DNA of 64,000 nt, from the NCBI GenBank assembly GCA_017630155.1, contig JAGBVU010000005.1:144342-208341 (forward strand). The letters run 5' to 3'. The notes below the pieces were generated by a model that was not told the origin of the DNA, did no database searches, and was given only the letters and a program-made list of their open reading frames with translations. Numbering within the stretch: position 1 is the stretch's first letter; every line of letters begins with the position of its first letter. Of this stretch, positions 16,645 through 47,390 are shown piece after piece. This stretch comes from Bacteroidales bacterium. Its GTDB lineage: Bacteria; Bacteroidota; Bacteroidia; Bacteroidales; UBA932. The position numbers were made by a program, and so were the translations under genes.

Positions 16645-16650
16645 GTAGTT

Positions 16651-25034: not shown

Positions 25035-25150
25035 CTACACACATGCAAGAAATCAGGCAAAAACTTGCAGGTGTGTAGTAAAAGTCGTCGGAAACTGAGG
25101 TGATTCGGGACACACATGCAAGAAATCTGGCGAAAACTCGTAGGTGTGTG
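25035..25150. repeat. Two tandem ~44 bp hairpin units, 74 bp apart
   Basis: ctacacacatgcaagaaatcaggcaaaaacttgcaggtgtgtag and cacacatgcaagaaatctggcgaaaactcgtaggtgtgtg. Each folds as acacac(a)tgcaag / cttgca(g)gtgtgt. Confidence 0.75.
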
Positions 25151-25234
25151 GTGAAATGTACAGCGACGCACGGGAAATGCCCGATATCTGCTGCGTCAGG
25201 TGGGGGATGACTTATTTTGACTGCTTGACAGGCT

Positions 25235-32744: not shown

Positions 32745-32821
32745 TTACAAATATTTTATTTAGATTTTAGCTGAATACGCCACCACAATTACCGCATTGA
32801 CTCTATTGTCAATGTGCTATA

Positions 32822-32829
32822 CAAAGTTA
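32822..32829 (-). promoter_or_regulatory. -7 box TAACTTTG (minus strand) for the DUF1848-helicase operon
   Basis: Reverse complement of caaagtta, about 78 nt upstream of the ATG at 32744. Confidence 0.4.
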
Positions 32830-32915
32830 CATAAATTATAATATCCTAACAAAACCACCTTTTCAACCATCTTACCCAACTTTACAACCCTATCACAACA
32901 CTCACCCCTCTTTTT

Positions 32916-33515: not shown

Positions 33516-33630
33516 AATGATAAATATTAATGTTATGGTTTTCTATGATTTTATCACATAAGCAGCACTATGTAATAACACTACGAAGTTACAACCATCA
33601 CAACATTGAACGAAATATTATGCCCCCGAA

Positions 33631-33661
33631 TGTATGAAATGGTAGCTAAGGTGTACGAAAC
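33631..33661 (-). promoter_or_regulatory. Second pair of ATTTCATACA-type direct repeats at 21 bp spacing
   Basis: tgtatgaaat at 33631-33640 and tgtacgaaac at 33652-33661, 116 nt upstream of the zinc-ribbon gene. Confidence 0.4.
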
Positions 33662-33796
33662 TGAGTGCCATGACAATTTTCAACATTTTTACTTAAAAAA
33701 AATAGCCATCATCGCTCCTGATGAAAGCTCTTTTGATCTGTAATCAGCAACTATATTTCCCCGAATTTTCTTAATTCCCCGTTTTTAGGGTTTAAG

Positions 33797-34672
33797 TTAT
33801 TCCTCCTGTTCGTAATAATACGAGTAATCGATGCCCTTCATGAAGGTTTCGCGGTCGTGGATTTTGTCTGTAAGAGCTGATGCGAGAAGTTTGTGGATAG
33901 GGGTGGGGTTGACTACGCTGGTCTGCATGGCCTGGAGGTAGTCGTTTTTGTTGATTTGGCTCCAGTCGACACATCTCTGTAAGCGTTTTTTGAGGATGAG
34001 GTCGAGCCATATACGGGTGGAGCGGCCATTGCCTTCCATGAATGGATGGGCGACGTTCATTTCTACGTATTTGTCAACGATCTGGTCTAATGTATCTTCC
34101 GGCATTGATTCTATCTTCTGCAGTTCGTGTGGGAGATATTCTGCAAGGCAGAAAGTGAATCCTCCTTTGCTGATGGTCTTGTTGCGGATTTGACCGGCAA
34201 AGTCGTAGAGACCGCCGAAGATGTAGGCATGAATCTGCTGCAGGGACTTTATTGTTCCAACATCTTCATATGCCACGAGGTTGCTTTCCATGAAGGTGTA
34301 TGCCTTCTTCTTACTTTTGCCGTCTATTGTGTTGTCACTGTATGTGAACCAGTCGAGGAATGCATTTGCTCTATTGTTCGGATAGTGCTTAGCGAGGATT
34401 TCCACACATTCATTGTCAAGAGCATCTGCAGTTCGCTTCTTTCCGTCAGGAGCCTCAAATTTGAAGTCGTGAGTGATACTCACGAGTTGAACTCCATCTG
34501 CGTTCAGTTTCTTCTTCAGCCAACGCCAATAGTTTCCAGCCTTGACATAGTCATCTCCCTTATTGATTGCACGGACGATGTCAATCGCAGAAAACCACCA
34601 CTTGGAATTGATTTCATCCCAAATGGCTCTGACCTCGCGGTCATTGAAGAATCTGATGAATATCTTACTCAT
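33797..34672 (-). CDS. Bro-N domain / Fic (AMPylase-type) family protein
   Basis: N-terminal Bro-N-like pattern (FNDREVRAIWDEINSKWWFSAIDIVRAI). Canonical Fic motif HPFMEGNGRSTR. Confidence 0.85.
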   Translation of the reverse strand: MSKIFIRFFNDREVRAIWDEINSKWWFSAIDIVRAINKGDDYVKAGNYWRWLKKKLNADGVQLVSITHDFKFEAPDGKKRTADALDNECVEILAKHYPNNRANAFLDWFTYSDNTIDGKSKKKAYTFMESNLVAYEDVGTIKSLQQIHAYIFGGLYDFAGQIRNKTISKGGFTFCLAEYLPHELQKIESMPEDTLDQIVDKYVEMNVAHPFMEGNGRSTRIWLDLILKKRLQRCVDWSQINKNDYLQAMQTSVVNPTPIHKLLASALTDKIHDRETFMKGIDYSYYYEQEE

Positions 34673-34804
34673 AGAAGCAAAGGTACTAAATTTATAGCAC
34701 GGGACCTATATGTTCTCTAAATATCTCACCGCAATTCCCTGAGACTTGGCGTAGGTAATTTCGTTACGGGTGCTTTCGTGCAAAACAGTGTCGAGGACAG
34801 ATGG

Positions 34805-35278
34805 CTATGGAGAAATTATAAAACAAAGAGCCGTCATCGCTCTGACATTTTTATCTGTAACTCGCAACAAATTGCGGTAATGTGTCCAAGATAGTATTTG
34901 GGATTTTCCACTCACTGTGTGGAAAATCTCAGTGAAGAACTTATAAAACTCAACAAACTGATAGAGATTGCTCTTTGTGAATCCCTTACCATATACATTC
35001 GTGAGGTGATCGGCAAGTCGTTTGATAATTTCCTTACCATACTCAACTCTATTCACTCCCTGCAATTCTTCATCAACAATACGCTTACCCAACAGCCAAT
35101 TACGCTGTACCATAGCCACATTAACGGCGTGATATGCATAATTGCGTGTTTGTTCAATGATATTCTGTGAATCCTTAAAAATATCACCTGTATTGCTAGC
35201 CTTTAGTATCTCTATGTCTTGTTTCATAATGCAGAGATATATACTTTTGTCGAAATGAGACACATACAATGATTCCAT
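34805..35278 (-). pseudogene. 3'-truncated copy of the DUF1016/YhcG-type PDDEXK nuclease gene
   Basis: The first ~148 codons are near-identical to the N-terminus of 44174..45289. The nuclease half is absent, and the reading frame runs into unrelated sequence. Confidence 0.85.
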
Positions 35279-35336
35279 CTAGTAGAACAAAACGGCCCAG
35301 ATCTTTAACGAATCTGGGCCTATTTTTTTATTTATT
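34847..35336. repeat. ~490 bp direct repeat, copy 1 (pairs with 44857..45347)
   Basis: About a dozen mismatches over ~490 bp by eye. It includes the nuclease gene 5' half, its upstream region, a hairpin terminator and the last 9 nt of the 45339..47390 gene. Confidence 0.9.
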
Positions 35337-35521
35337 GCCTTCGTGCAAAACGGAGTCCAGCATAGATGGCCCTAGATAGGCCTCTGATCACGATTCCGCT
35401 GGACACCTGAACCATTTAGCTCGGTTATCCAAGCCAACGCCATTCACAACTCCTTGTAAAGCACTTTAGACTGGACAATTACTAGTAGGCTCATATGAAA
35501 AGTACTATAATTATATATCTA

Positions 35522-38500
35522 TCATTTCAATAAACTTATCTCATCAGTAGACATTCCAACAATCTGTAATAATGTGATCATATCATCTGTATTTGTTGCC
35601 CATAGAGTCGGCTCATGTTGGAAATTATGCTTACACAACTCATTCCACTTAGAACGTTCAGATTCAAGAGAAGCAGACAAGAATAAGAGCTTACAATTAG
35701 TATTTCTAGAATCACGGCTTTCAATCATAGATTCTTTTCTTACAAATGCATCAGACTTCTTATCCATTTGCTGGAGCAATTCATTGACATCAGTGTATCT
35801 GCGGTCAACATACGGATAATTTTCCTCACCCACCACATGCTTGTAAATAGAAAAGCCCTTCAATCTTGACCATAATGCGTTGATTAATGTCTCTTTAAGA
35901 GTATTCTTGAACTTAATTATCTGATCTTCACTTATATTGTACTGATTCTTGAACATTGAAGACAACCTAATCTCCTTAGTTATACTATCTTTCTGTTCTT
36001 CAAAGTATGAATCAAGACAAGGGTTAGATATCAATGATAGGAACGGTTCTCTATTCATTGGCTCAATCTTCACACTTTCCTCTTCTTCAGCACGCCAAAC
36101 CTTAAGATTACCGACATACGATTTCATACCGTTATACTTAGTATGAAGATTCTTTGACAATTTGGAAAGAGAGTCAATAATCATACCGGCAACATGGGTC
36201 TTGATATGTATTATATCTATCTCCCTAGTCCTCTTTGTTATCTCGTCAGTTATTCTGTCTAATCGATGTTTGTAATCCTCATCCAGATCCACTTTCTTAT
36301 GTTTCCTTTGTTTAGACCACAAAGCGAAGACGAGAGAGCCTACGACTAACAAACCGTAAACGATATAACTCACAGTACTAAATAACACATCCTCTACTGA
36401 TTCACTATACGAGCACACTAAAATAAATGTCAACAGGATAGTTGCAGCCACACCCCAGAACACCCATTTTGTAACCTTAGTTTTCTTATCAAAAGCCTCA
36501 AGCTGCACAGTACGCTCTTCATGAACACGTTCCTTTGAAGAATGCAAGTCGCGTTTTTCCATCTCAAGACGCTTAATAGATCCGTCGCAAATAGAATTTC
36601 TCGTCGCATTGTTTCCAAGAAGCTGCGTCAAAGTATTATATTCAACCGTTTTTGCACTGAATTTGGTACTGAGTGTTGCCAGATTTACCTTTTCTTCCTC
36701 TATAAGATTCTTCAATATCGCTGCCTTAATCTGGGAGTTTGACATATCGAATGATATTGTTGTCTTATTGTCCTTTCCTCCTACCGTGAGTTTATTGTCT
36801 GAAATCTGAGTAATAATACAAGCAATATTCATCAGACTCGGATCAGCTATGTAAGAATATGGTATATAGCAATATCCTCTATCACCAAATCTTGTTCCCC
36901 ATGAATTCCTTACAATGAAGATCTTCTCCTCCTCACTGTAACCACAGAGAATCATCGCATGATTTCCACTTTCCCCAGAAATCTCTTCAGAGGTTGGTCG
37001 AGAAATGAATCCCTCTACTGGCTCGAATGAGTCATAAATCTTCAATGATATTGCTACAGGGTATCCTTCAGAAATTGCTGATTTTATATCATCAAGGGTG
37101 CCCTTTACATTCAACGCCTTAATTATCTTGTTACTCTGTGCATCATCATAGGCCTCTTGCGAAGGATTTATATCTAATGTTTCCGAATACGGACAGAAAC
37201 GTTCATGGCAAACACCCTTATCAGTAATTGAAGATATTACTTCAAAGAGAGAACTTCCTGTATCTTCTTTCTCCTTATTGTTGGCTTTGCGCACATTATA
37301 GTAAACAAAGCTCTCACTCAAATCTGGCTCGCTTATACTATTCCTTTTAAGGATATATTCGAAAATGCCGACAATTGAGAATGCAGAACATGCACCAATT
37401 TCACCCTGATCTTTAATCGTAGTAAAGAACGGTCTCAAATCCACCTTTGCAGGAAGATTTGTCTTTGGAACATAATCCTCAGAACAAGGAATTTCAGTAA
37501 CATTCGCCTGCAGCTGGTACGTTTTACCCTCAAAAACAAAACCGTCACGAGTTAATCTCTTCTGGCTTTCAGTATTATCTTTTATTAAAACCTCTACCCC
37601 CTCTAATTCCTCTGACTTATGACGAATGTAATTTGAAGACTCCCTCATCCTAACCTTGATCGCCTTCACATCATCTATAATCGCACTCGCAGATGCCACT
37701 GCTGTCTTTGCTGAACCTGAAAGTGCTGCATACTCTGCAATAGACTCTCGTTCTGTTTTCTCTGTAGCAACGTCTGTTTCTTCTATCGACGTTGTAGGAT
37801 ATAGCGCAGCTAGATTATTATTCAATTGAACAAACAAATCTAGCACTTCCCTAGCACAGTCATCAATTACAAGTTGACGCTTATTGAACATATATCCAGT
37901 CAATAAATCGTCATCCTCGCCTAAAAGTTGAGCTAATGTCGCCTTCTTCTCTGGCAAAGACAAGTTATCGTCATCGACAAAAGACTGGAAGACATCAGTC
38001 AAACGTTGAACCTCGGTCTGAAGTTCCGGATGTATCTGAGCTATTATTTCATCTTGTTGTTCTCCCCTATCAAGTCTCGCCTTTACAGATTTATTATAGA
38101 AAGAGGTAAATATCTCTACATTCTCTTTCAGAATCTTTTGTACAATCTGAGAGACCTTATTTACATCTACCTCTTCTTGGCGTACCTTTTCCCTATCAAG
38201 GATATTGATATAGGCTTTATGCAATAGATATTGCACAAAGTAATACTTGTCAAAACTTAGAACAGAGAGGCCTAGTGCATGTATCAATCTATCCTCCGAC
38301 TCTGCAGCAGGATTAAATAGTTCCTGATAATGATTTAAGGAAAGAAGAGTATATTCTCCAATGATTCTCACAAAGGACTCAAGCACCAGATTCAATGCAA
38401 CTCCCGCAGAGTTACAGTTCTGCAATAGAATCGCATGCGCTATCTGTCTTTGAGTTTTATTGAATTCAATGATTTCATTGATGGTCTTCTTAGTCTGTTG

Positions 38501-39025
38501 TTGGTACTCATTTACCTTAAGAGGCAACAAGTCGGCATCCTTCTCGAACAGATAGGCAAGATCGTAAGGAAGCAACAAAAGGTCAACATTGTAGTTCTGC
38601 GGGATTGCATTTATTGCTCCTAAAAACTCCTTGATTGTTGACCAACACTTTGCATCATATGTCTTCAGGTGAAAACACACATGCAATGATGTAGAATCTC
38701 CAGGATTGTTAATCGTTACTTGACGATTATATAATTCAGAGTAAAAGCTCTTCAAATACTCGCTTCTATTCGCTGCCGGGATACGATATTTCTCAACAGA
38801 CTTTACTGAGTACAAGTTATCAATACCTGCAACAAACTTACTGGCATCATCTAGAGCAGGTATGGCCTCATAAAAAATAGAGTCTCCTTCCCGCTTGTCA
38901 TCAAATAATATGGCACGAAAAAAATCCGTCGACTTTTCATTACCATACTTAATGATGTACTCCTGAAGATTGCAAAGCATCTGCTCGGCATTACTGCCGA
39001 GCATTATATGCACCGTGTGTCTCAT
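35522..39025 (-). CDS. Multidomain membrane protein: degenerate tubulin-like N-domain, papain-like (C1) cysteine peptidase, coiled coil, 2 TM helices, C-terminal domain
   Basis: Peptidase C1 triad motifs KDQGEIGACSAFS (Cys546), GNHAMILCGY (His689), VRNSWG (Asn707). TM helices at about aa 853-875 and 884-903. The N-terminus aligns by eye to the GTPase of the upstream gene but has lost the glycine loops. Confidence 0.8.
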   Translation of the reverse strand: MRHTVHIMLGSNAEQMLCNLQEYIIKYGNEKSTDFFRAILFDDKREGDSIFYEAIPALDDASKFVAGIDNLYSVKSVEKYRIPAANRSEYLKSFYSELYNRQVTINNPGDSTSLHVCFHLKTYDAKCWSTIKEFLGAINAIPQNYNVDLLLLPYDLAYLFEKDADLLPLKVNEYQQQTKKTINEIIEFNKTQRQIAHAILLQNCNSAGVALNLVLESFVRIIGEYTLLSLNHYQELFNPAAESEDRLIHALGLSVLSFDKYYFVQYLLHKAYINILDREKVRQEEVDVNKVSQIVQKILKENVEIFTSFYNKSVKARLDRGEQQDEIIAQIHPELQTEVQRLTDVFQSFVDDDNLSLPEKKATLAQLLGEDDDLLTGYMFNKRQLVIDDCAREVLDLFVQLNNNLAALYPTTSIEETDVATEKTERESIAEYAALSGSAKTAVASASAIIDDVKAIKVRMRESSNYIRHKSEELEGVEVLIKDNTESQKRLTRDGFVFEGKTYQLQANVTEIPCSEDYVPKTNLPAKVDLRPFFTTIKDQGEIGACSAFSIVGIFEYILKRNSISEPDLSESFVYYNVRKANNKEKEDTGSSLFEVISSITDKGVCHERFCPYSETLDINPSQEAYDDAQSNKIIKALNVKGTLDDIKSAISEGYPVAISLKIYDSFEPVEGFISRPTSEEISGESGNHAMILCGYSEEEKIFIVRNSWGTRFGDRGYCYIPYSYIADPSLMNIACIITQISDNKLTVGGKDNKTTISFDMSNSQIKAAILKNLIEEEKVNLATLSTKFSAKTVEYNTLTQLLGNNATRNSICDGSIKRLEMEKRDLHSSKERVHEERTVQLEAFDKKTKVTKWVFWGVAATILLTFILVCSYSESVEDVLFSTVSYIVYGLLVVGSLVFALWSKQRKHKKVDLDEDYKHRLDRITDEITKRTREIDIIHIKTHVAGMIIDSLSKLSKNLHTKYNGMKSYVGNLKVWRAEEEESVKIEPMNREPFLSLISNPCLDSYFEEQKDSITKEIRLSSMFKNQYNISEDQIIKFKNTLKETLINALWSRLKGFSIYKHVVGEENYPYVDRRYTDVNELLQQMDKKSDAFVRKESMIESRDSRNTNCKLLFLSASLESERSKWNELCKHNFQHEPTLWATNTDDMITLLQIVGMSTDEISLLK

Positions 39026-39029
39026 AGAC

Positions 39030-41771
39030 CTATAGATGTTTCTTTACGTAATCGAGTTCCAAAGTTATAAGCTCTCTGATTCTCTCAAATCCCTTTGCCT
39101 TTATTTGGTCCTTTGTCATATTTATCTGAGAGTAAGCATTCAGATAGTTAGCCTTCGCAGCAGATATTATCTTTAAAACAGCCTCCTGCCCCTTTTGAGA
39201 AACAAGGGTTTCAATAATATCAGTAAACTCTTTCAATATCACGGCCTTGTTCCTTCTAAACTCATCATAAGCCTCATCGCGATATTTGCCCAAATCTACC
39301 CAGTTATCATCCAGAGTATCTCCTAGTTCCTGACTCTGGAACTGATATGTACCATTGTCATTTCTCACAAGGCCAAAAATAAAGCCCTTAACCCACATTT
39401 CAAGTAAATCGTCATCAGAAGCCCTCTTAGGAACAATAGCATACTCTTCTCTTACCATTCTTGTCAACATATTATTGTCGAAATGGCAGTTTACATTACA
39501 ATCCTCATATTCTCTCTTGTATTCCTGAATTGATGAGATTGCGTATGCCGGAACTACACCAACCTGTCTATAGATGATGATTCTATCGTTCACGCCGATG
39601 TTTGCAAAATCCACATCCGCAGTACCATGTATCTTACCCTTGAAATAGTTGTCCTTAAAGAGACGACTCGTTGCTTTATTTGGTACACCCACATAGAAAC
39701 TATCTCTAGGATTTTCCTTTGGAGCATAACCTCTATAATTGTATCGGAACAATGGCATAGACTTCTTGACTGCCAATTCTACAACATGCTTGAAATCGTC
39801 TTCTGACAATTTATCAATTATCTGATCAATTGTTGTCTCTGCCAATGACTTTGCGACATGAGTGCGTGATGTATAACGCAAGAGCATATCCTCTACCTCT
39901 CCTGAAGACAACTCATGGAATCCGTATATTTTTCCTTCATTGATTAGTGTCCTTACAAAATCCGAAATCTGGATATCATCCTGCTTAACAGACACTTTTG
40001 ATGCCGCTTCTAGGGCAAGGTCGATCTGGAAAGTACGAGAAGTCTTACCCACACTGTTCTGGATCTTTGAAAGATCAGATGTAAACTTCTTATATATACC
40101 ATTAAGAGTGCTATGTATAACCTTCACTTTATCCTCAGCAATCTGAAGCATTGACAGAATATTGTTAAACACAGTGAGCGCAGAGGTCCTACGAACGATC
40201 TCTCTCTGACATACCACAAGCTGCCTTACCGCATCAGCCACATCTGTAGCTCTATCCTCTAAAGTCGACGACTTCTTAAAGAACTTGGAGTCATATTCTT
40301 TAAGATCCGCTACTGCGGTTTCCATCGCAGTTCTCAGCCTTGGCTCCTTGTCAACAAAGTCTTCTTTCTCTTTCTGCATCTCTCCGATGAAGAGATTTAC
40401 CTGAGTACGAATACCCTCAATAATTTTTGCCGCAGTTGAAACACCACACTCTTTATTGATATTTGCCACCAAGAGTTCACGAAGTTCCTTCCTAACTCTT
40501 GATGTCAAAGTAGTAATCTTAGGTGACACGAATTCATCAGCCAACTGCTGAGCTGCAATGTACTGCTGGATTTCAGGAGTTGGATTAGCATACTCGTTGA
40601 TAGTGATATCATACTTTGGATTCTTATCAGCAATGAAATCAATAACGTGGTCATTATTATTGTTTTCTCTGATATTCACTTTCTCAGAATCAATCCAAGA
40701 GTTTACAATCACATCAATATCCTCACATGTATTTTGTAATCTCTCAATGAGACTCTTTGCTGCCTTGATTGAATATATCTTACTAATTGACGAACTCTTG
40801 TAAAGAATCTCGCAAACACCCATACCTGCAGCCCATGCCTTTTTGTTCTCAATATCCATTGAGCCTTCTGCAATATTCTTCTCAAGGTTATCACTCACAC
40901 TCGCTGATGCAGTGGACAGCTCTCCTGCTGAGGTAACCAGAGCAAGACTTATCATCTCGGTCAGTTCATCAATATGAGTATACGAATCATTATTCTCATT
41001 CTTATTATCAATGAAAACGACCGAATTGAATGGTCGCTCTTTTATCTCATAACTATCTCTTATGTACTCCAATTTGACAGGAGTAGATCCAATACCCATA
41101 TGCATGAGATAGTCAAGATCCTGAATTGCACCATATGCATTTGGTGCAACTTTTGCCATACCTGAATTAGACATCGACTTGAACACATCCGGAAGGACCG
41201 CATAACCTGTAAGTTTGCATCCCGGAGCCTCCTTACGAAGCAGATATGCCATATTTAAGAAAGTGCCACATCCTGTTCCACCACACACAGAGAATATCAT
41301 ATGAATCTCTGTATCTGAGCCCAAGAGCTCATACTTATCGTTATTGATTATTCTTGCATTTGTAATCTGGTCAAGAATGCTTCTAATCTTCTGCGCTACC
41401 TGAACATAATTAACTGTGAATGCAAATCTTCCATTTGTCCTTACCTGTCCTGCGCCCTGATTCAGGGAAGACAATGCATACAAGTTCTTATCTGGCACCC
41501 AAGAAAAGTACTCCTTATTCACATCATATATAGGTCGAGGATCTCGAACAATAATAGGAAGCTGCTCATTTGGCAAAAGGGAAATTTCCTCACCCGTTGT
41601 AGATGGGAGAGTCTTCTTATATTGATTTCCATCTGTATCAATACCCATGAAGCCGATCATAGGTGGAACCTCACCATATGTATCAACGAACATCTTCTTT
41701 GTGTGAAGAAGCGCATTCATACCTGTACCACCCATTCCGACGTACAGGCATCTTTTAATTTTTGAGCCCAT
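39030..41771 (-). CDS. Tubulin/FtsZ-superfamily GTPase-like protein with a long helical C-terminal extension
   Basis: T1-like GMGGTGMNA (aa 12-20), T3-like NQGAGQVRTNG (aa 104-114), and T4 signature-like CGGTGCG (aa 163-169), in the correct order. 913 aa. Confidence 0.7.
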   Translation of the reverse strand: MGSKIKRCLYVGMGGTGMNALLHTKKMFVDTYGEVPPMIGFMGIDTDGNQYKKTLPSTTGEEISLLPNEQLPIIVRDPRPIYDVNKEYFSWVPDKNLYALSSLNQGAGQVRTNGRFAFTVNYVQVAQKIRSILDQITNARIINNDKYELLGSDTEIHMIFSVCGGTGCGTFLNMAYLLRKEAPGCKLTGYAVLPDVFKSMSNSGMAKVAPNAYGAIQDLDYLMHMGIGSTPVKLEYIRDSYEIKERPFNSVVFIDNKNENNDSYTHIDELTEMISLALVTSAGELSTASASVSDNLEKNIAEGSMDIENKKAWAAGMGVCEILYKSSSISKIYSIKAAKSLIERLQNTCEDIDVIVNSWIDSEKVNIRENNNNDHVIDFIADKNPKYDITINEYANPTPEIQQYIAAQQLADEFVSPKITTLTSRVRKELRELLVANINKECGVSTAAKIIEGIRTQVNLFIGEMQKEKEDFVDKEPRLRTAMETAVADLKEYDSKFFKKSSTLEDRATDVADAVRQLVVCQREIVRRTSALTVFNNILSMLQIAEDKVKVIHSTLNGIYKKFTSDLSKIQNSVGKTSRTFQIDLALEAASKVSVKQDDIQISDFVRTLINEGKIYGFHELSSGEVEDMLLRYTSRTHVAKSLAETTIDQIIDKLSEDDFKHVVELAVKKSMPLFRYNYRGYAPKENPRDSFYVGVPNKATSRLFKDNYFKGKIHGTADVDFANIGVNDRIIIYRQVGVVPAYAISSIQEYKREYEDCNVNCHFDNNMLTRMVREEYAIVPKRASDDDLLEMWVKGFIFGLVRNDNGTYQFQSQELGDTLDDNWVDLGKYRDEAYDEFRRNKAVILKEFTDIIETLVSQKGQEAVLKIISAAKANYLNAYSQINMTKDQIKAKGFERIRELITLELDYVKKHL

Positions 41772-41782
41772 TGTGTTATTAT

Positions 41783-42712
41783 TTATGATATTACTATTTT
41801 TGATTTACTACCTGTCTGGATATTCTCCAGAGTATATTCCTGTGCTTTTTTCAGAATACGAGAATCGACCATAAAGTCCTTTCCTTGTCGTATTCTAATG
41901 CTGCTCTTATCCCTTGGTTCAAAAGCGACATCAGATGTCCATCTCGGATCAACTACAAACTTCGTTTCACCAACAAAGGTCTTCTCAAAGAATCCTTGTT
42001 TTGCCTTATCTTTTGATGATGTCAGAATAACTTTATGAAATCCTCGTGCTCTAACTACATTGGAAAACTGATCGCTCTGAATACTGATATTTCCGATTTT
42101 AAAAGTTGGAAAGAAAATCGGCTTGAGAATAAAAATCCAAACTAGCAATGCGATGATAATTCCCGAAAAGCTAAATGTCATTCCCTCTGCTAAAGGATTC
42201 CATACTTTCTTCTTTTCCGCGGTTACTTCCATCAAAGCAGTATTATCATCATTGAACTGAGAAGGATCCGTGTCGTTAATTCTATCAAGTCCTCCATCTT
42301 CAAGAACTTTGATATACCAATAATGAACTTTACTTTCTGCACCTTTAGTAAACACAACCCCTACTGTAAGCTTTTCAGTTGTAGGAGGGACTGTTATAGT
42401 ATTGCCATCTACCTGCTGCTTATCAACAAATAGCTGCATCTCATTCTCCATAACTTGAACATAACGACCAGAGTCATTCTTCTTAAAGATACCAAGTACC
42501 AATGGCTCACGCATATGATTCCTTGAATCCTCATTGAAATCAAAGCATATAGTCTTTGTTAATGTATCAGGGACATGCTTCTTCCACAAGAAATCATCAT
42601 ATACTTTAGAACGTCCCCACGAAGTAGATGGGAGTTTTGTCTCCGAATCACATCCTATCGCTAAAAATAAGACTAGCGAAACTAAGAAAGCAAACTTTAT
42701 TTTAGAGCACAT
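41783..42712 (-). CDS. Lipoprotein with C-terminal TM helix, unknown function
   Basis: Start moved to the ATG at 42712 (MCSKIKFAFLVSLVLFLAIGC, lipobox). Hydrophobic helix FSGIIIALLVWIFILKPIFF near aa 190-210 of that form. Confidence 0.6.
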   Translation of the reverse strand: MCSKIKFAFLVSLVLFLAIGCDSETKLPSTSWGRSKVYDDFLWKKHVPDTLTKTICFDFNEDSRNHMREPLVLGIFKKNDSGRYVQVMENEMQLFVDKQQVDGNTITVPPTTEKLTVGVVFTKGAESKVHYWYIKVLEDGGLDRINDTDPSQFNDDNTALMEVTAEKKKVWNPLAEGMTFSFSGIIIALLVWIFILKPIFFPTFKIGNISIQSDQFSNVVRARGFHKVILTSSKDKAKQGFFEKTFVGETKFVVDPRWTSDVAFEPRDKSSIRIRQGKDFMVDSRILKKAQEYTLENIQTGSKSKIVIS

Positions 42713-43715
42713 AGAACGACACGGTTTTTTCTGGTTTGTTAATAAGCTGAACTCTTGTAGATTCATCAAGCAATCGCGTGTTTTTATGAGGACCATCCGT
42801 TGAGACAGGAGTCATTTGCAATGTAATATCATTATATGATTCCCAGCTCATTGCCATTATATCCGACTTTGAACGTTTGAATTTAGGATGTACCTCAAAT
42901 GAATAATTTTCATCCATGGTCACAACCTCATCAATCTCTATATAAGGATTATCTTCTGTCTTGAAATGAACTTGATATCCAGGCTGCACATCACCGCCAT
43001 ATGACGAGAACTTCACAGATTTTGGTTCGCCATACTCGTCACGTACACTTATGACAAGACCTATTCCCTTAGTCGCACTTACATTCAGCTGTCGGATATC
43101 ACCTATACCTGACATATCGCCATCCGAAAGATCAACTGTTTCAAAATTACATATCTCCTTAAGTTTGATAATCAGGTCCCCATTCTCTTTCGCGGCATCC
43201 GTCAAAAGGATATAGTAACCATACACATCCTTCGATTTCGCAATCTGACACCAATTATCAAGGATATGCTTCAATTTGTTAGGATCAACATTATCTACTC
43301 CATCCGTCATTAGCTTCATAATATCAATCTTATCCGTAGTAAAGATTTTATCAATCGCATGCTGCAGCGGGGCAGAGATGTTTGTATTGGTAATATTGTC
43401 GTTTTTGTATGCTTTAATTTTTGATTTGAGATTAGCTTTTCCCTGAGGAGTTGCAAACTCTTTCCAAACGTCACAATACTTTGAATTTTGGAAAGGCACA
43501 ACTACGATTTCTGTTCTCTCATTAGTAATAGACTCAATATCTTTAATCATTGCAGTCACCACCTTGTCATAAATATTCGGAGAGCCGTTATATCCTTTCA
43601 TTGATAAAGTAACATCCCAAAGATATGTCATACGGATATCTTTGTATGAATCACTTCTTGCTGTGCCTGCTATTAAGGCAAACATCAAACAACATAAATA
43701 CTTAGTGTTTTTCAT
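42702..43715 (-). CDS. Secreted von Willebrand factor A (vWA) domain protein
   Basis: Signal peptide MKNTKYLCCLMFALIAGTARS. MIDAS-like DVTLS (DxTxS) at aa 34-38 and the downstream LMTDG motif. C-terminal beta-rich domain. Confidence 0.7.
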   Translation of the reverse strand: MKNTKYLCCLMFALIAGTARSDSYKDIRMTYLWDVTLSMKGYNGSPNIYDKVVTAMIKDIESITNERTEIVVVPFQNSKYCDVWKEFATPQGKANLKSKIKAYKNDNITNTNISAPLQHAIDKIFTTDKIDIMKLMTDGVDNVDPNKLKHILDNWCQIAKSKDVYGYYILLTDAAKENGDLIIKLKEICNFETVDLSDGDMSGIGDIRQLNVSATKGIGLVISVRDEYGEPKSVKFSSYGGDVQPGYQVHFKTEDNPYIEIDEVVTMDENYSFEVHPKFKRSKSDIMAMSWESYNDITLQMTPVSTDGPHKNTRLLDESTRVQLINKPEKTVSFYVL

Positions 43716-43914
43716 AGAAACGCATTATAATATACCATTAAAACGAAAGCGTGGCGCTGAAGCTTATCTAACTGACTGGTCCTAGGAATAACCGCGTGAA
43801 TAAATAAGCGACAACCCCACGCCGTAAATCCGGATTGGATACGACGAAGGAGCGAGCTTATCCTCTTCACTTATGAATTTCCTAGGTTCGTCAGTGAGAA
43901 CAAACTACACTTTC
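43716..43914 (-). other. ~200 nt GC-richer structured insert between the promoter and the vWA gene, flanked by an 11 bp direct repeat
   Basis: gtgtttttcat occurs at 43705-43715 and 43915-43925. Nested complementary arms: aaacgaaagcgtg / cactttcgtgttt and ctgac..cctaggaa / ttcctagg..gtcag. Confidence 0.5.
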
Positions 43915-43935
43915 GTGTTTTTCATCATGTATGTG

Positions 43936-43943
43936 CAAATATA
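43936..43943 (-). promoter_or_regulatory. -7 box TATATTTG (minus strand) upstream of the four-gene operon
   Basis: Reverse complement of caaatata. It ends about 8 nt before the ATGATG of the 7-codon upstream ORF. Confidence 0.4.
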
Positions 43944-44056
43944 AATATTTATCCGTTTATAAACGAATAAATACGGATTTATTCCTCACTTAAAGAATAT
44001 TACATAAATCATCTCATTGCTGTCCGGTAAGTTCCGGACAGCAATGAGTCTCCTAA

Positions 44057-44097
44057 TAAAAACAAAGAGCCATCATCGCTCCTGATGACAGCTCTTT
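44057..44097 (-). terminator. Hairpin terminator after the DUF1016 gene; sequence shared with 33703-33741 and half of it with 34822-34845
   Basis: On the minus strand, aaaagagctgtcatcaggagcgatgatggctcttt is followed by gtttttatt. Confidence 0.6.
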
Positions 44098-44173
44098 TGA
44101 TTCTGTTGCGGTCGTAGGTTTTCTTCGATTTGTGGATCACTTTATTTGCATATACAGAAACACTCCCGACTAA

Positions 44174-45289
44174 TTATTCTTCGGGAGTGTCTTGCTGTAA
44201 TTTGAATATCTCTTTTTGCAATTCTATCTCTTCTTTCAATTGGTCAATTGATGGCAGATAGGTTAAATATCTTGCTTGGAATAACCGTTCATTATCGTGA
44301 AGCACTGAGTAACGAGCCATATCCTCACTTGTTTCAGAACAAAGGATAAGCCCAATGGTCGGATTATCGCCTTCTGTTCTTTTAATGCTATCGTACATTC
44401 TTACATACATGTCCATCTGTCCGACATCTTGATGTGTAATCCTTGATGCTTTAAGGTCTATCAATAAGAAACATTTGAGGATATAGTTGTAAAATACCAA
44501 ATCAATGAAATAATCACCTATATCGGTTTTAATATGTTGCTGACGAGCAACAAAAGCATAACCCTTACCTAACTCCATAACAAACTTTTGGATATGGGTA
44601 ATGATAGATGATTCCAATTTGGTCTCTGAAAAGTCAGAATTTGGAGACAATCCCAAGAACTCTGCTACAACGGGATTTTTGATGAACTCCAATTTATCTT
44701 GCTGGTATGGTGCTGTAATCTGTTTCATCTCCTCTTTGACCACCTGCTTATTCTGTGATTGTAGCAAACGGTAGTAATATTGTGAAGCGATGTTTCGGTC
44801 AAGTGTTCTTGCACTCCATACTTCAGTTATAGATTCGTTAAGATACCAATCTCTGGCATTTTTATCTGTAACTCGCAACAAATTGCGGTAATGTGTCCAA
44901 GATAGTATTTGGGATTTTCCACTCACTGTGTGGAAAATCTCAGGGAAGAACTTATAAAACTGAACAAACTGATAGAGATTGCTCTTTGTGAATCCCTTAC
45001 CATATACATTCGTAAGGTAATCGGCAAGTCGTTTGATAATTTCCTTACCATACTCAGCTCTATTCTCTCCCTGCAATTCTTCATCAACAATACGCTTACC
45101 CAACAGCCAATTACGCTGTACCATAGCCACATTAACGGCTTGATATGCATAATTGCGTGTTTGTTCAATGATATTCTGTGCATCCCTAAAAATATCACCT
45201 GTATTGCTAGCCTTTAGTATCTCTATGTCTTGTTTCATAATGCAAAGATATATACTTTTGTCGAAATGAGACACATACAATGATTCCAT
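44174..45289 (-). CDS. PDDEXK nuclease domain protein (DUF1016 / YhcG family)
   Basis: 371 aa. N-terminal helical DUF1016 region and a C-terminal restriction-endonuclease-like core (DLVFYNYILKCFLLIDLK = D...(D/E)xK pattern). Confidence 0.8.
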   Translation of the reverse strand: MESLYVSHFDKSIYLCIMKQDIEILKASNTGDIFRDAQNIIEQTRNYAYQAVNVAMVQRNWLLGKRIVDEELQGENRAEYGKEIIKRLADYLTNVYGKGFTKSNLYQFVQFYKFFPEIFHTVSGKSQILSWTHYRNLLRVTDKNARDWYLNESITEVWSARTLDRNIASQYYYRLLQSQNKQVVKEEMKQITAPYQQDKLEFIKNPVVAEFLGLSPNSDFSETKLESSIITHIQKFVMELGKGYAFVARQQHIKTDIGDYFIDLVFYNYILKCFLLIDLKASRITHQDVGQMDMYVRMYDSIKRTEGDNPTIGLILCSETSEDMARYSVLHDNERLFQARYLTYLPSIDQLKEEIELQKEIFKLQQDTPEE

Positions 45290-45347
45290 CTAGTAGAACA
45301 AAACGGCCCAGATCTTTAACGAATCTAGGCCTATTTTTTTATTTATT
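44857..45347. repeat. ~490 bp direct repeat, copy 2 (pairs with 34847..35336)
   Basis: See copy 1. This copy lies in its native context: a full-length nuclease gene and the true 3' end of the neighbouring gene. Confidence 0.9.
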
Positions 45348-47390
45348 AAAAATATCATAATCCACCCACTTGTCGCATTCACCCCTTACAAGTCTCCCTT
45401 TGGCGGTGTCGGGGTACTTCTGGGCTACTGTCCTGAAGTGGTTCAGCCTATAGTGGAGGTCGGCGGCCAGTTCCGGATCAGTAACGGTCTGGAGTGCCTC
45501 GTCTATAAGTGATTGCGCCCGTCTCCTGGCGGCAGATGTGTATTTGTCACTCTCCCAATCCCTTTTGATGCATACCTGATCTACAAAGTTTGTCCCTTTA
45601 TAGTATTGGGTAAGCCCCCAATGGGTTTCAAATGATTGGCGGATCTCTATCCCGAGTTTATACATATACTTTCCCTTGATATCAGGATTTGTTACAATAC
45701 CGATCTTTTTTTCGAGTATATGCATCTCCAGAGCAAACTCATATCTGTTGAGGTAGGGTCCCATATGATCACCCACTTTCAGACTCGCCCAATACCCTTG
45801 GCTAACATTCTCCAGATACCCAACAGCTTCACTGTAACGGAGATTCCTCAGACATTGCGTCCCCAGGATATCATTCAGGTAGTCGCTGTCTGTATATCCA
45901 CGCTGATTGAGGTATCTGTCGAACTCCGATTTGGGATTCCTGATATTCGCTGTATAGCACTTTGCCACATCCAGCCCCAGACTGTCAATCATCTCAAAGA
46001 AATGGTTTGAGTAATGGAGATCGCTCTTGACCCCAACCACCTTCGGGAGAAAATTGTCTGCCATATTTGCCAGCTGGAGGGCACGGTTTGTTTTCCCTAT
46101 TTCGAGCATGCGGGGGCAAACCTCTGCCAGGAGAATGCGCCTTAGCATATCATTCCAGTAATAATAGCTGATCATTCTGCCCAGCTTACTACCATCGATG
46201 GTCTCAAGAACCACATCTTGATCGATGTTGTTGACTATTTTATCCTCCAACCATCTGAGTTGCCCGAGTAGCTTGACTTCGTATGAGCTGTCATATGTGG
46301 AGCTCTTGGAGTCAAGATAGATTCTGAATACCTTCAGCGATTCCTTCAGGAATTGGCTGCACTTCTGCCCCTCTGCCAGTTTCAGATAGCGCATAGCCAT
46401 CCATGTATCTTTCACCAAATCATATAGAAATGCCCTGGTATAGTACCATATAGCCTTGTCCGTAACCTCTGCGCTCCTTATCATTCTGTTACAAAGGGAG
46501 CACAAATCATTGTATTCGGGTGTAGCTGTGAATGAGTGGTCCCAATCCCAATACAGATTTGGTTCCATCTGCCTGACGCATTTCTGCAGCGCCTTGGGGA
46601 TGTTATGGTGGTTAGGATCGCATTCGCAAATCATGCTCAATGCTTTCACCGCAGAAATTCTTTCCCCGCTGAGGTAAGAGCAATAGAGCATCGATTCGAT
46701 GTCTCCCATTTGTGCGAAATATTCTATATCGCTTCCGAGCTGCCCCATGTGGTATCTGGCTCCCGCAATGTACGGTTCTATCATTCTCCTCATAAGATTC
46801 TCCCTAGGGAGCAATTCCACCTCCTCTTCCCATATCCTTATGCACTCATCATATCTTGCAAGGGTGAATAGTGCCCTGACCCCCTGTAGCAGATATCTCT
46901 CCCTGAGTGCAGGAATATCTGCTGACAATGAGACCTGGGCAACCTCTTCAAGGGTCATCCTTGCCCCGATTTTCATTAATGGGTAATACCAACGGGAATT
47001 GCGTTTGGCACGGATATACTCATTGGTCTTAGCCAGGAGGAGGAAATCAAGGATGGCTGTATCTTTTTTGGTAATCCTTTCCAGAAATCTGTTGTTGTAG
47101 GTGCTGTCGCGTCTAGTCGCTACCTTCTCAATCTCTTCCAGCGGCATATCATAGACAACATAGTGGATTTCATGCAGAGGGATGCTGTAGGAGGTCATCT
47201 TTTGCCACTCCCTGCAGTTTTCGGTGCGATCCTGAGAGGCGTCCCCCACCAATGCATTGTTCTCCCCCTCATAGACTCTGTACATATAGTATGCTGCAGG
47301 CAGGTTGGATGGAACCCAACACCCGTTGGCATACTTTGGAAGGCTTATGGCCAATAAGCTAATGAGCAAGTATTTGTGCAATCTCTTCAT
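45339..47390 (-). CDS. Putative lipoprotein, unknown function (683 aa)
   Basis: Signal/lipobox-like N-terminus (LLAISLPKYANGC) and a helical repeat-like body. No family recognised. Confidence 0.6.
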   Translation of the reverse strand: MKRLHKYLLISLLAISLPKYANGCWVPSNLPAAYYMYRVYEGENNALVGDASQDRTENCREWQKMTSYSIPLHEIHYVVYDMPLEEIEKVATRRDSTYNNRFLERITKKDTAILDFLLLAKTNEYIRAKRNSRWYYPLMKIGARMTLEEVAQVSLSADIPALRERYLLQGVRALFTLARYDECIRIWEEEVELLPRENLMRRMIEPYIAGARYHMGQLGSDIEYFAQMGDIESMLYCSYLSGERISAVKALSMICECDPNHHNIPKALQKCVRQMEPNLYWDWDHSFTATPEYNDLCSLCNRMIRSAEVTDKAIWYYTRAFLYDLVKDTWMAMRYLKLAEGQKCSQFLKESLKVFRIYLDSKSSTYDSSYEVKLLGQLRWLEDKIVNNIDQDVVLETIDGSKLGRMISYYYWNDMLRRILLAEVCPRMLEIGKTNRALQLANMADNFLPKVVGVKSDLHYSNHFFEMIDSLGLDVAKCYTANIRNPKSEFDRYLNQRGYTDSDYLNDILGTQCLRNLRYSEAVGYLENVSQGYWASLKVGDHMGPYLNRYEFALEMHILEKKIGIVTNPDIKGKYMYKLGIEIRQSFETHWGLTQYYKGTNFVDQVCIKRDWESDKYTSAARRRAQSLIDEALQTVTDPELAADLHYRLNHFRTVAQKYPDTAKGRLVRGECDKWVDYDIFNK

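Follow-up and report, generated by a model that had tools for sequence, protein, structure and literature searches.

A Bacteroidales operon of the vWA/FtsZ-like-1 type with a membrane-anchored papain-like protease: a predicted envelope-spanning sensor with a possible role in conflict

Four genes on the minus strand (35522-43715) lie close together in the window, i.e., the whole 64,000-nt stretch of Bacteroidales DNA that was analysed, see Table 1. Genes 1 and 2 overlap by 11 nt (42702-42712), genes 2 and 3 are 11 nt apart, and genes 3 and 4 are separated by 4 nt. The four-gene set occurs in gut Bacteroidales, and full-length homologues with 44-93% identity and kept synteny are present in more than 70 genomes, so the four ORFs are real genes and not chance reading frames. 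Of the 80 species-level loci, 74 keep the gene order vWA, TM protein, FtsZl1, protease, even where FtsZl1 identity falls to about 35%, and the median intergenic gap across loci is 11 nt. The most conserved parts are the GTPase and peptidase domains, with median identities of 61% and 54%, versus 30-35% elsewhere.

Table 1. Features of the locus. Positions refer to the window, aa numbers to the protein concerned.
Feature	Position	Strand	Details
Fic gene	33797-34672		
Truncated DUF1016_N ORF	34805-35278		
Direct repeat, left copy	34840-35336	.	terminator and first ~146 codons of YhcG/DUF1016 gene, truncated
Strain-variable slot	34843-45336	.	comparison with relative L091
Intrinsic-terminator-like hairpin, operon end	35294-35320	-	10-bp stem and T-run, inside left 495-nt repeat
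Gene 4, multidomain protein, 1167 aa	35522-39025	-	N-domain, C1 peptidase, helical linker, TM hairpin, C-terminal domain
C-terminal cytoplasmic domain (gene 4), aa 903-1167	35525-36319	-	conserved within family
TM hairpin (gene 4), aa 854-872 and 884-902	36320-36466	-	acidic 11-aa loop, Lys/Arg-rich flanks
Papain-family (C1) peptidase domain (gene 4), aa 524-721	36863-37456	-	PF00112; Gln540, Cys546, His689, Asn707; NSWG
N-domain (gene 4), aa 1-520	37466-39025	-	alpha/beta part aa 1-240 (confident model) and helical region
Gene 3, FtsZl1/Tubulin_2 family GTPase, 913 aa, cytoplasmic	39030-41771	-	Pfam PF13809
FtsZl1 long helical/coiled-coil region, aa ~398-571, then mixed C-terminal domain	40059-40580	-	AlphaFold
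FtsZl1 GTPase domain, aa 9-342	40746-41747	-	T1 loop GMGGTGMNA, signature loop CGGTGCG
Gene 2, single-pass membrane protein, 309 aa	41783-42712	-	hydropathy
Gene 1, exported vWA-domain protein, 337 aa	42702-43715	-	Sec signal peptide, MIDAS site
Candidate Bacteroides-type -7 box TATATTTG	43936-43943	-	~220 nt upstream of vWA start codon
Two terminator-like hairpins 3' of YhcG gene	44013-44097	-	between YhcG gene and operon
Full DUF1016/YhcG gene	44174-45289		
Direct repeat, right copy	44851-45347	.	same terminator and 5' part of intact YhcG gene

The MIDAS site of gene 1 is intact (D34-x-T36-x-S38, T111 and D138), and both these residues (92-98% conserved) and the signal peptide are kept across 65 orthologues. 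The Pfam families VWA and VWA_2 score below threshold on this protein (VWA E 2e-3); an identical protein is named 'VWA domain-containing protein' in NCBI. For gene 2, hydropathy indicates an N-terminal lipoprotein-type signal with a lipobox (…LAIGC), after which some 155 aa would be exported; a TM helix spans aa 178-196, and the remaining ~113 aa form a tail on the cytoplasmic side. A Pfam search found no family for this protein, and public assemblies call the same 309-aa start. In about 31 loci, the vWA protein is fused to a gene 2-type protein, the fusion ORFs of 570-640 aa matching both.

Gene 3 clearly belongs to the Tubulin_2 family (PF13809; E 3.4e-48, 165 bits, cut-off 27), and no TM helix was found in it. 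It contains the motifs GMGGTGMNA, NQGAGQVRTNG and CGGTGCG, and the glycine-rich ones (T1, T4) are invariant or nearly so in 19 orthologues. Structurally, its globular Foldseek matches are all weak, but they consist only of tubulin, gamma-tubulin, FtsZ and CetZ. The AlphaFold model of the GTPase domain is of low confidence, while pLDDT is 85-96 within the helical/coiled-coil stretch. The layout agrees with the FtsZl1 architecture in PMC2875224, where FtsZl1 is also described as having no recognisable T7 loop. As the GTPase model is of low confidence and no such loop is recognisable, polymerisation of FtsZl1 is an assumption.

The central part of gene 4 is a papain-family peptidase (Peptidase_C1; E 2.4e-21, 77 bits, cut-off 20.7), in which Gln540 of the oxyanion hole and the catalytic Cys546, His689 and Asn707 are invariant in 22 homologues. 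Hydropathy gave no hydrophobic N-terminal segment, and in a crude scan 54 of 76 orthologues have two TM segments. Both large parts of the protein should be cytoplasmic, because the loop of the TM hairpin is acidic and its flanks are rich in Lys and Arg; the protein is predicted to be cytoplasmic throughout, except for the loop of about 11 aa. For the C-terminal domain, a Pfam search returned no known family.

The N-domain of gene 4 is family-specific: 230 representative clusters match it among 1.84 billion proteins, all 122 long clusters (122/122) also carry a C1 domain, and in Bacteroidales it is always fused to the peptidase. In Myroides, the protein that follows FtsZl1 (716 aa) has an N-terminal part homologous to this domain (hhalign probability 96%, E 5e-9), without protease and without TM helix, so the protease appears to be a module added to a conserved partner. 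It can be speculated from the models that the N-domain represents a second tubulin-like module in degenerate form, since its strand and helix order runs parallel to that of the FtsZl1 GTPase domain. Three weak in-register profile matches between the two domains (E 0.02-0.04) are not significant, GTP motifs are absent from the N-domain, and in Foldseek C11 protease folds rank above FtsZ/CetZ. The operon's only match to a Walker-A pattern, GFVFEGKT at aa 495 of gene 4, falls in a predicted beta-hairpin and was judged spurious.

A preliminary description of this DNA, made from its letters, had called four tightly spaced minus-strand ORFs as one operon, and our re-derived ORFs agree with it in coordinates and spacing. 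Its domain and topology calls were all right: the signal peptide and MIDAS-like DxTxS motif of gene 1 (kept in orthologues despite the sub-threshold Pfam scores), the lipoprotein-type signal and single TM helix of gene 2, the GTP-binding loops and tubulin/FtsZ-like affiliation of the 913-aa protein, and the papain triad and two TM helices without signal peptide of gene 4. The single operon is borne out by the synteny. The proposed span of the envelope is also in line with signal peptides and hydropathy, which place the vWA protein and the N-terminal part of the membrane protein outside the cytoplasm, and FtsZl1 and the protease inside it. The operon is thus predicted to connect an exported metal-binding vWA protein with two cytoplasmic partners, a divergent tubulin-like GTPase and a papain-like protease anchored in the membrane, the membrane protein of gene 2 forming the link.

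The hairpins at 44013-44097 separate the YhcG gene from the operon, which therefore should have its own promoter. The -7 promoter consensus in Bacteroides is TAnnTTTG, and TATATTTG is a candidate for this promoter. An Rfam search of the operon leader gave no match.

The direct repeats of about 490 bp reported earlier are found as copies of about 495 nt with ~97-98% identity, and the neighbouring Fic gene and the truncated and full DUF1016 genes are likewise confirmed. The composition had been overstated: G+C of 25-37% against 48-55% in the flanks becomes, when recomputed, 37-40% in the operon versus ~44-53% in core flanks, in an AT-rich block that spans from about 29000 to 45000 and includes neighbouring genes. 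That the operon is AT-rich holds relative to the core flanks here, but it is not systematic, as the median G+C difference between the operon and its own flanks across the family is -0.008.

The presence of the operon varies across relatives. In the close relative L091, whose flanks are 90-95% identical, the slot contains not the operon but a 256-aa gene together with a defence-type (UG26) reverse transcriptase and a further YhcG. A second lineage shows three states at the HisS-DAGK junction: nothing inserted, a recombinase/Abi-like island, or the operon. The homology of a 91%-identical copy of the cassette ends exactly at the protease stop codon, with nothing shared beyond it, and on a Meiothermus plasmid vWA-FtsZl1-X lies between two IS701 copies, adjoining BrxL. 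The family is rare and patchy (95 matches in 185,579 species genomes). We conclude with high confidence that these four genes represent the vWA/FtsZ-like-1 (Pfam Tubulin_2) neighbourhood as it occurs in Bacteroidales, and that they form an accessory operon that moves horizontally.

The defence-island context in the preliminary description stands for this window, where the flanks match the PADLOC candidates PDC-S04, PDC-S02, NERD+UvrD and RT-associated DUF1848 and the slot can hold the UG26 reverse transcriptase; here the operon is swappable cargo in a defence-gene hotspot. It does not extend to the family, in which about 18 of 207 nearest neighbours (~9%) match PADLOC, a raw rate that establishes no enrichment, and many loci have housekeeping genes as neighbours. 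Clustering of the 381 neighbour ORFs gave 288 clusters, only two of them recurrent. PADLOC models gave no match to any of the four operon proteins, and the operon is not consistently foreign in composition; both observations speak against a conflict reading. In many relatives, though in a minority of loci, an exported Endonuclease_NS (non-specific nuclease) and a DUF6565 lipoprotein form a 3' add-on pair, which is absent from the window.

We suggest, tentatively and with a probability of roughly 0.4, that the operon encodes a GTP-dependent sensor that spans the envelope and has a protease as its effector, and that it probably serves conflict or defence. The exported vWA domain would bind a periplasmic ligand through its MIDAS metal site and would be coupled, covalently in many species, to the single-pass membrane protein, which extends a tail into the cytoplasm. 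This tail and the gene 4 N-domain could dock the soluble FtsZl1 at the inner membrane face. Ligand binding would then alter how FtsZl1 self-assembles in a GTP-dependent way by means of its GTPase domain and long coiled coil, and the assembly would cluster or un-inhibit the membrane-anchored protease, which could cut cytoplasmic or membrane-proximal targets. Because the operon occurs patchily, varies between strains and lies in hotspots where defence genes are otherwise found, the output would most likely be a conflict response directed at phage and other invaders, or else a reaction to attack on the envelope; the attacked cell could stop growing or die as part of it.

The main rival, which we regard as somewhat less likely, is physiological: FtsZl1 assemblies, anchored by the TM protein and the gene 4 protein, would shape, repair or vesiculate the membrane, e.g., in the biogenesis of outer-membrane vesicles or surface structures, and the protease would process a substrate with a structural or regulatory function. 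Published work predicts such a role for the vWA/FtsZl1 family, and it fits the membrane-associated or exported nature of every partner, the housekeeping neighbours at many loci and the PADLOC result. The helical part of FtsZl1 also matches ClyA-type toxins and BDLP weakly in Foldseek (E 4e-3 to 0.06, low TM-scores), but with rmsd above 25 Å these matches probably reflect generic long-helix similarity. However, an operon that is this rare and patchy, and that is swapped for defence-type cargo in close relatives, would be unusual for a physiological machine, and remodelling alone would leave a conserved, apparently catalytically intact protease unexplained.

Less probable still is envelope-stress or cell-surface signalling, in which the vWA/TM pair would sense an outside cue (a metal, surface contact or a host molecule) and the FtsZl1-protease would cleave a regulator, as in regulated anti-sigma factor proteolysis, the periplasmic nuclease and lipoprotein being co-regulated outputs for extracellular DNA. 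The transmembrane sensor layout, the vWA-TM protein fusions, a membrane protease facing the cytoplasm and the recurrent 3' pair would all suit such a pathway. Yet the 288 neighbour clusters include no transcription factor or sigma/anti-sigma gene that is conserved beside the operon, such a pathway gives no reason for a 913-aa GTPase, and the nuclease pair belongs to a minority of loci. Chance adjacency of the protease gene and the vWA/FtsZl1 pair is effectively refuted by the order and tight spacing kept over wide divergence, by an N-domain confined to the gene 4 architecture whose protease-less homologue also follows FtsZl1, and by the 91%-identical copy that shares exactly the cassette.

Among known systems, the solved structure closest to the peptidase domain is PDB 3OIS ('Cysteine protease'; E 7e-29 over ~205 residues), which we take to be xylellain from Xylella fastidiosa. 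It shares with bacterial C1 proteases the catalytic domain, Gln-Cys-His-Asn and the NSWG motif. Unlike these proteases, gene 4 has neither a signal peptide nor a match to an I29-type prodomain, and its peptidase sits mid-protein, facing the cytoplasm, between the 520-aa N-domain and the TM hairpin. FtsZl1 and a tubulin-like N-domain would be a possible parallel to paired tubulins (alpha/beta-tubulin, BtubA/B, the two tubulin genes of Firmicute conflict systems), with homology unproven.

The combination of genes was not recognised in the preliminary description; it is the vWA/FtsZl1 system predicted computationally in 2010 by Makarova & Koonin (PMC2875224), who favoured membrane remodelling. 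A B. caccae trio (BACCAC_02056-02058), including a 'COG4870 cysteine protease', is already in Additional file 5 of that paper, while its main text does not mention a protease or discuss the B. caccae orthologues. Our literature search found no experimental report on the vWA/FtsZl1 system. As in those neighbourhoods, FtsZl1 has an N-terminal divergent GTPase, a long coiled coil and a C-terminal domain, and it adjoins a vWA gene with intact MIDAS and membrane or secreted partners. None of the recurrent partners (Ser/Thr kinases, P-loop GTPase, OmpA-like proteins) is in the present operon. It differs also in its fourth component, a papain-like protease that is anchored in the membrane and joined to a family-specific N-domain, in the split or fused single-pass partner of the vWA protein in Bacteroidales, and in the frequent Bacteroidales add-ons, the exported nuclease and DUF6565 lipoprotein. 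Newly described here are the conserved order, the vWA/membrane-protein and protease/N-domain fusions, the nuclease and DUF6565 extras and the reverse transcriptase in the slot.

Neighbourhoods of a tubulin and an extracellular vWA protein were re-read computationally as conflict systems by Kaur, Burroughs, Iyer & Aravind in 2020 (PMC7159879). The defining components of these GAP1-N2-type systems are GAP1, one or two TRAFAC (DO-type) GTPases and FNIII-repeat proteins, none of which has a Pfam match in the present operon, and they occur in Firmicutes and Actinobacteria, whereas the present operon is from Bacteroidales. Common to both are a tubulin-superfamily protein with a C-terminal coiled coil, a TM protein that displays a vWA domain outside the membrane, and a membrane-proximal NTP-dependent assembly proposed to gate conflict effectors; in the present operon, unlike in those systems, the effector would be a C1 peptidase.

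The order vWA protein, membrane (TM) protein, FtsZl1 GTPase and protease protein is kept in 74 of the 80 loci returned by a genome scan, in which one genome per species was searched with an alignment of FtsZl1, i.e. the FtsZ-like-1 family or Pfam Tubulin_2 (PF13809). This answers the question of co-occurrence raised in the preliminary description. The loci are almost all from Bacteroidales, with the addition of Myroides and a Flavobacterium, and the conserved order persists down to about 35% FtsZl1 identity, with a median intergenic gap of 11 nt. Among the other six loci, three are interrupted by contig ends; the protease gene is missing from the most divergent scanned loci (L077, L078 and L084). 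The most conserved parts of the cassette are the GTPase domain (median identity 61%) and the protease domain (54%), and the least conserved are the exported and linker regions, with 30-35% identity.

In the window, the four minus-strand ORFs lie exactly where they had been placed and are packed as claimed: genes 1 and 2 overlap by 11 nt, genes 2 and 3 are 11 nt apart, and genes 3 and 4 are 4 nt apart. The earlier annotation of the proteins is also correct, and the operon is real and conserved. Terminator-like hairpins are found on both sides of the operon, see the table, and the four genes thus form one transcription unit. From the known Bacteroides consensus we infer that the promoter is the Bacteroides-type -7 box TATATTTG at 43943-43936, about 220 nt 5' of the first start codon. 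The leader of about 220 nt (43716-43935) between this candidate promoter and the start codon seems unusually long; it has no Rfam match, and the Rfam and tRNA scans of the operon region are empty. Identical proteins have been deposited from a Bacteroidales MAG, two as "hypothetical protein" and one as "VWA domain-containing protein".

Features of the operon and its surroundings in the window, and of the genes that follow the operon in loci of relatives (L-numbers)
Feature	Position	Strand	Remark
Gene 1, vWA protein	42702-43715	-	ORF
Gene 2, TM protein	41783-42712	-	ORF; longer alternative start at 42796
Gene 3, FtsZl1	39030-41771	-	ORF
Gene 4, protease protein	35522-39025	-	ORF
Two terminator-like hairpins	44097-44064 and 44048-44013	-	just upstream of operon
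Terminator-like hairpin	35320-35294	-	just downstream of operon
495-nt direct repeat	34840-35336 and 44851-45347		~97-98% identical
DUF6565 / Endonuclease_NS genes after protease gene	L087 9170-10399; L001 8320-9105; L002 13525-14310; L053 6078-7306

The AT-richness of the operon is a real contrast, but a smaller one than first estimated, with 37-40% G+C against about 44-53% in the core flanks, and the AT-rich block (~29000-45000) takes in neighbouring genes besides the operon. A foreign origin as the reason for the AT-richness does not hold as a general rule, as the cassette-minus-flank difference in GC ranges from -0.155 to +0.104 with a median of -0.008.

Judged by its sequence, the gene 3 protein is a clear member of the Tubulin_2/FtsZ-like-1 family. 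It matches PF13809 with an E-value of 3.4e-48 and 165 bits (cut-off 27), aa 9-342 covering profile positions 1-355 of 356, and the domain is carried by all 120 gene 3 homologues among the matches listed. The T1-type (GMGGTGMNA) and T4 (CGGTGCG) loops that had been read in the protein are present and conserved: in 19 orthologues G12, G14, G15 and G17 of the T1 loop (aa 12-20) are kept at 90% or above, and C163-G169 of the signature loop (aa 163-169) are invariant except for position 168. The T6-H7/T7 elements are not identifiable in FtsZl1 (PMC2875224).

In the AlphaFold model of gene 3, high confidence is limited to the long helices at aa ~398-571 (pLDDT 85-96) and to parts of the helix-rich C-terminal domain that follows. 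This layout, with an N-terminal GTPase, an extended coiled coil and a helical C-terminal domain, fits the FtsZl1 architecture of PMC2875224. When this model was searched with Foldseek, the only globular matches were gamma-tubulin, tubulin, FtsZ, CetZ and Odin tubulin, at probabilities of 0.96-1.0 yet with E-values of 0.03-0.1 and TM-scores of 0.43 at most. Because the GTPase domain is modelled at a pLDDT of only ~40-75, these matches are only suggestive of a tubulin fold. Sequence and profile searches of the PDB returned no solved relative. The likeness of the helical region to ClyA-type pore toxins and BDLP (rmsd >25 Å) was taken as generic long-helix similarity. Additional tubulin-like genes are seen in some loci: in L081, for example, a shorter Tubulin_2-like gene (16505-17980, 491 aa, E 1.4e-15) directly follows the protease gene, and in L044 two small ORFs (9221-10044) resemble the FtsZl1 N-terminus, possibly a decaying second copy.

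The gene 1 protein falls below the Pfam VWA threshold. Its description as a signal-peptide vWA protein with a MIDAS-like motif is borne out by 65 orthologues, in which all five MIDAS positions (D-x-T-x-S, T, D) are 92-98% conserved and all of which have a signal peptide. The gene 2 protein matches no known family; it is predicted to have a lipobox-type signal and a single TM helix, with an exported domain (~155 aa) before the helix and a cytoplasmic tail (~113 aa) after it. In about 31 loci the vWA and TM proteins are a single polypeptide of 570-640 aa, which speaks for a direct physical link between the two across the membrane.

The peptidase domain of gene 4 (PF00112, aa 524-721) scores 77.3 bits against a cut-off of 20.7 and matches 146 papain-family PDB chains at E ≤1e-3, the closest being 3OIS (E 7e-29). 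The papain triad noticed earlier (C546, H689, N707) is invariant in 22 homologues of 44-93% identity, and so are Q540 of the oxyanion hole, six residues before the Cys, and S708 and W709 (NSWG motif). As had been said, there is no signal peptide, the protein having no N-terminal hydrophobic segment, and inhibitor_I29, the prodomain typical of C1A enzymes, has no match in it. The TM hairpin (aa 854-902) has Lys/Arg-rich flanks and an acidic 11-aa loop; from this charge pattern the N-domain (the 520 aa preceding the peptidase), the protease and the C-terminal domain are all predicted to be cytoplasmic. An internal, presumably cytoplasmic peptidase that lacks both I29 and a signal is therefore best seen as a C1-fold enzyme in an atypical setting. 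Two further candidate motifs in gene 4 were dismissed: a CARD (aa 264-311, E 0.014) in a region of low model confidence, and a P-loop, whose sole Walker-A-pattern match, GFVFEGKT (aa 495), lies in a predicted beta-hairpin and was judged spurious.

The N-domain is rare, with only 230 representative relatives among 1.84 billion proteins, and the C1 domain accompanies it in 122/122 long relatives. In Myroides, the gene after FtsZl1 encodes a soluble protein of 716 aa without the protease and without the TM hairpin, the N-part of which is homologous to the N-domain (hhalign probability 96%, E 5e-9); this family has 7 members only. It therefore looks like the N-domain protein is a conserved FtsZl1 partner in Bacteroidota, to which a protease and a membrane anchor were added in Bacteroidales. 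Downstream of FtsZl1, Duncaniella has a 745-aa and Meiothermus a 686-aa gene, and in neither of these is similarity to the N-domain detectable.

It can be speculated that the N-domain is itself a paralogue of FtsZl1 that has no GTP motifs. The two would then form a heteropolymer at the membrane, similar to alpha/beta-tubulin, with a protease on every second subunit, and a ligand of the vWA protein would trigger polymerisation and switch the protease on. The order of secondary-structure elements is parallel in the models of the N-domain and the FtsZl1 GTPase domain, and three weak profile matches are in register: two collinear ones between the N-domain and FtsZl1, using hhalign with alignments of 169 and 76 sequences (E 0.038 and 0.11), and one between the N-terminus of the Myroides homologue and the GTPase domain (E 0.021). 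However, these matches have no statistical support, and neither BLASTP nor hhalign with shallow alignments detects the relationship. Foldseek does not favour it either, as its best matches for the N-domain model are clostripain-like proteases of the C11 type (E 1.5e-4, TM 0.17-0.24), with FtsZ/CetZ ranking lower at E 0.04-0.06. We regard this scenario as improbable; if true, the operon would be an abortive-infection or immune system that is cytoskeleton-based and senses the envelope, a kind that is experimentally unprecedented in any organism. A caspase-like His/Cys dyad in the N-domain was also considered and rejected, since QNCNS is without Cys in two homologues and no His is conserved.

Downstream of the protease gene, many relatives have additional operon genes, which encode a DUF6565 lipoprotein and/or an Endonuclease_NS nuclease with a signal or anchor at its N-terminus. 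These are the sole recurrent families among the cassette neighbours (381 ORFs in 288 clusters), and in close relatives they follow with gaps of 4-7 nt. Both are present in an 87%-identical relative; in a 91%-identical copy the nuclease is apparently in two fragments, and in L053 it seems to be split between two ORFs. The window contains neither a nuclease remnant nor a DUF6565 gene. By analogy with NucA/NuiA, the pair could be a nuclease and its inhibitor.

The cassette is accessory and swappable. In the 91%-identical copy the similarity ends exactly at the stop codon of the protease gene. L091, a relative without the cassette, has flanks 90-95% identical to those of the window and the same core genes on either side. 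The place of the operon (window positions 45337 to 34842) is taken there by genes for a 256-aa protein, a defence-associated reverse transcriptase of the UG26 class (PADLOC E 8e-151) and a different YhcG. In the window, each direct repeat contains a terminator hairpin, a promoter region and the first ~146 codons of a YhcG/DUF1016 gene, the left copy being a truncated version of this gene. Similarity to L091 resumes at 34840-34842, and since this left breakpoint is exactly where the left repeat ends, the comparison fits the gain of a 10-kb segment by recombination. This points to homologous recombination as the route by which the 10,011-bp segment was acquired and by which it could be lost again.

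A second variable slot (29098-32913) contains DUF1848 (PADLOC "RTasDUF1848") and a NERD+UvrD-type helicase in the window, and three unrelated small genes, one with a RUBY_RBDX match, in L091. Between the two slots a Fic gene and a 199-aa gene are 95% conserved. In another lineage, the position 3' of HisS is either empty, with HisS leading directly into DAGK, or occupied by a serine-recombinase island with Abi-like genes; this operon and other cargo lie at the same HisS-DAGK site in L002. The region after the operon in L002 (15184-20560) encodes a peptidoglycan-binding protein, a HxsD/two radical-SAM (His-Xaa-Ser type) cluster, an ion channel, HTH genes and another Fic gene.

No close copies of the cassette are found on plasmids or phages, the only matches there being distant FtsZl1 genes on plasmids of Thermaceae, Nostoc and Azospirillum. 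On the Allomeiothermus silvanus megaplasmid pMESIL01 (L089, 6248-14931), a distant trio of vWA, tubulin-like and 686-aa genes is bracketed, like a composite transposon, by two IS701-family transposase genes sharing one protein accession. BrxL, a helicase and a WYL protein are encoded beside this trio. Typical Bacteroidales-like cassettes also occur in MAGs labelled Ructibacterium (Firmicutes) and Eggerthellaceae (Actinobacteria), L053 and L015, and these reflect either binning contamination or cross-phylum transfer.

Two other features of the window lie outside the cassette. At 45339-48342, between urocanase and the hotspot, two overlapping genes (683 and 327 aa) are 95% conserved beside the variable slot in relatives and have no match in Pfam, PADLOC or PHROG. 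Tandem 47-nt hairpin-forming units (ACACACATGCAAG…CTTGCAGGTGTGT) are found at 25037-25083 and 25110-25156; about 165 nt (25037-25201) recur at 81% identity in a different place in L091 (8291-8455, between urocanase and a 319-aa gene), and may be a small mobile or regulatory repeat.

The defence-island context proposed earlier holds locally, as the flanks in the window match the PADLOC candidates PDC-S04 (Fic), PDC-S02 (YhcG), NERD+UvrD and RT-associated DUF1848. It does not extend family-wide: at E ≤1e-8 about 18 of the 207 nearest neighbours in 70 loci match PADLOC, and several loci lie among housekeeping genes. The four operon proteins have no significant match in PADLOC-DB v2.0.0 (best E 0.03-0.085), the nuclease of the relatives has none there, and PADLOC, NCBIfam and PHROGs gave nothing useful for the cassette except a generic phage "peptidase" family. 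A defence role of the operon is plausible.

What is established for the operon is its topology together with intact ligand-binding, GTP-binding and catalytic motifs, an obligate co-occurrence of the four genes, the fusion of its two envelope parts in many loci, and its accessory, swappable nature. We suggest that the exported vWA protein would bind a periplasmic ligand and that the single-pass TM protein would relay the signal to FtsZl1 on the cytoplasmic side of the membrane. FtsZl1, assembling in a GTP-dependent manner, could then engage the N-domain of the protease subunit and thereby activate or cluster the protease. As the output we tentatively favour conflict or defence, with a probability of about 0.4. 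Envelope remodelling, predicted for the vWA/FtsZl1 neighbourhood when Makarova & Koonin described it in 2010 (PMC2875224), would be compatible with the loci among housekeeping genes; given the swappable slot, we find it a somewhat unlikely output. Signalling, which the sensor-like layout of the vWA and TM proteins would fit, is quite unlikely.

If the operon is a defence system, it would represent a new sensor-effector logic of bacterial immunity in gut commensals, in which a periplasmic vWA domain senses, a tubulin-like protein acts as the switch and a protease is the effector. The interest lies mainly in a tractable entry point to the function of FtsZl1 (Tubulin_2), which is more divergent than any other branch of the tubulin/FtsZ superfamily. 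With three or four genes, the Bacteroidales form is compact; it pairs an unambiguous enzymatic output, a protease with intact catalytic residues, with an equally unambiguous extracellular input domain, and orthologues exist in B. caccae ATCC 43185, whose genus can be cultured and genetically manipulated. Both the role of tubulin-like GTPases and the gating of a protease across the envelope by a cytoskeletal-type assembly are therefore directly testable.

Kaur et al. 2020 described tubulin and coiled-coil proteins with extracellular TM-anchored vWA proteins in the GAP1-N2 GTPase-centric conflict systems of Firmicutes and Actinobacteria (PMC7159879). The operon shares with these a tubulin domain with a C-terminal coiled coil and an extracellular vWA on a TM protein. 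In contrast to them, it has no Pfam match to GAP1, the TRAFAC-clade (DO) GTPase or FNIII components, and no GAP1 or TRAFAC GTPase gene recurs among the cassette neighbours. Because these components are missing, the operon is not a member of the GAP1-N2 systems, although the setting is similar.

The combination of genes had not been recognised in the preliminary description, but the vWA/FtsZl1 neighbourhood is the one already described in PMC2875224. No experimental work on FtsZl1 and no papers on the B. caccae locus tags BACCAC_02056-58 were found in the literature searched. Ser/Thr kinases, a diverged P-loop GTPase and OmpA-like proteins, partners that are frequent and not defining in that study, have no Pfam match in the four proteins. 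The common features are a vWA gene with intact MIDAS, here two genes upstream of FtsZl1, and membrane-associated or secreted partners, here predicted from the signal on the vWA protein, the signal and TM helix of gene 2 and the TM hairpin of gene 4. Additional file 5 of PMC2875224 lists BACCAC_02056 (535 aa), BACCAC_02057 (FtsZl1, 913 aa) and BACCAC_02058 ("COG4870 cysteine protease", 1152 aa), whose sizes and order are those of the fused-vWA form of the cassette; the protease is unmentioned in the main text. The operon is thus a previously tabulated but undescribed variant of the vWA/FtsZl1 neighbourhood.
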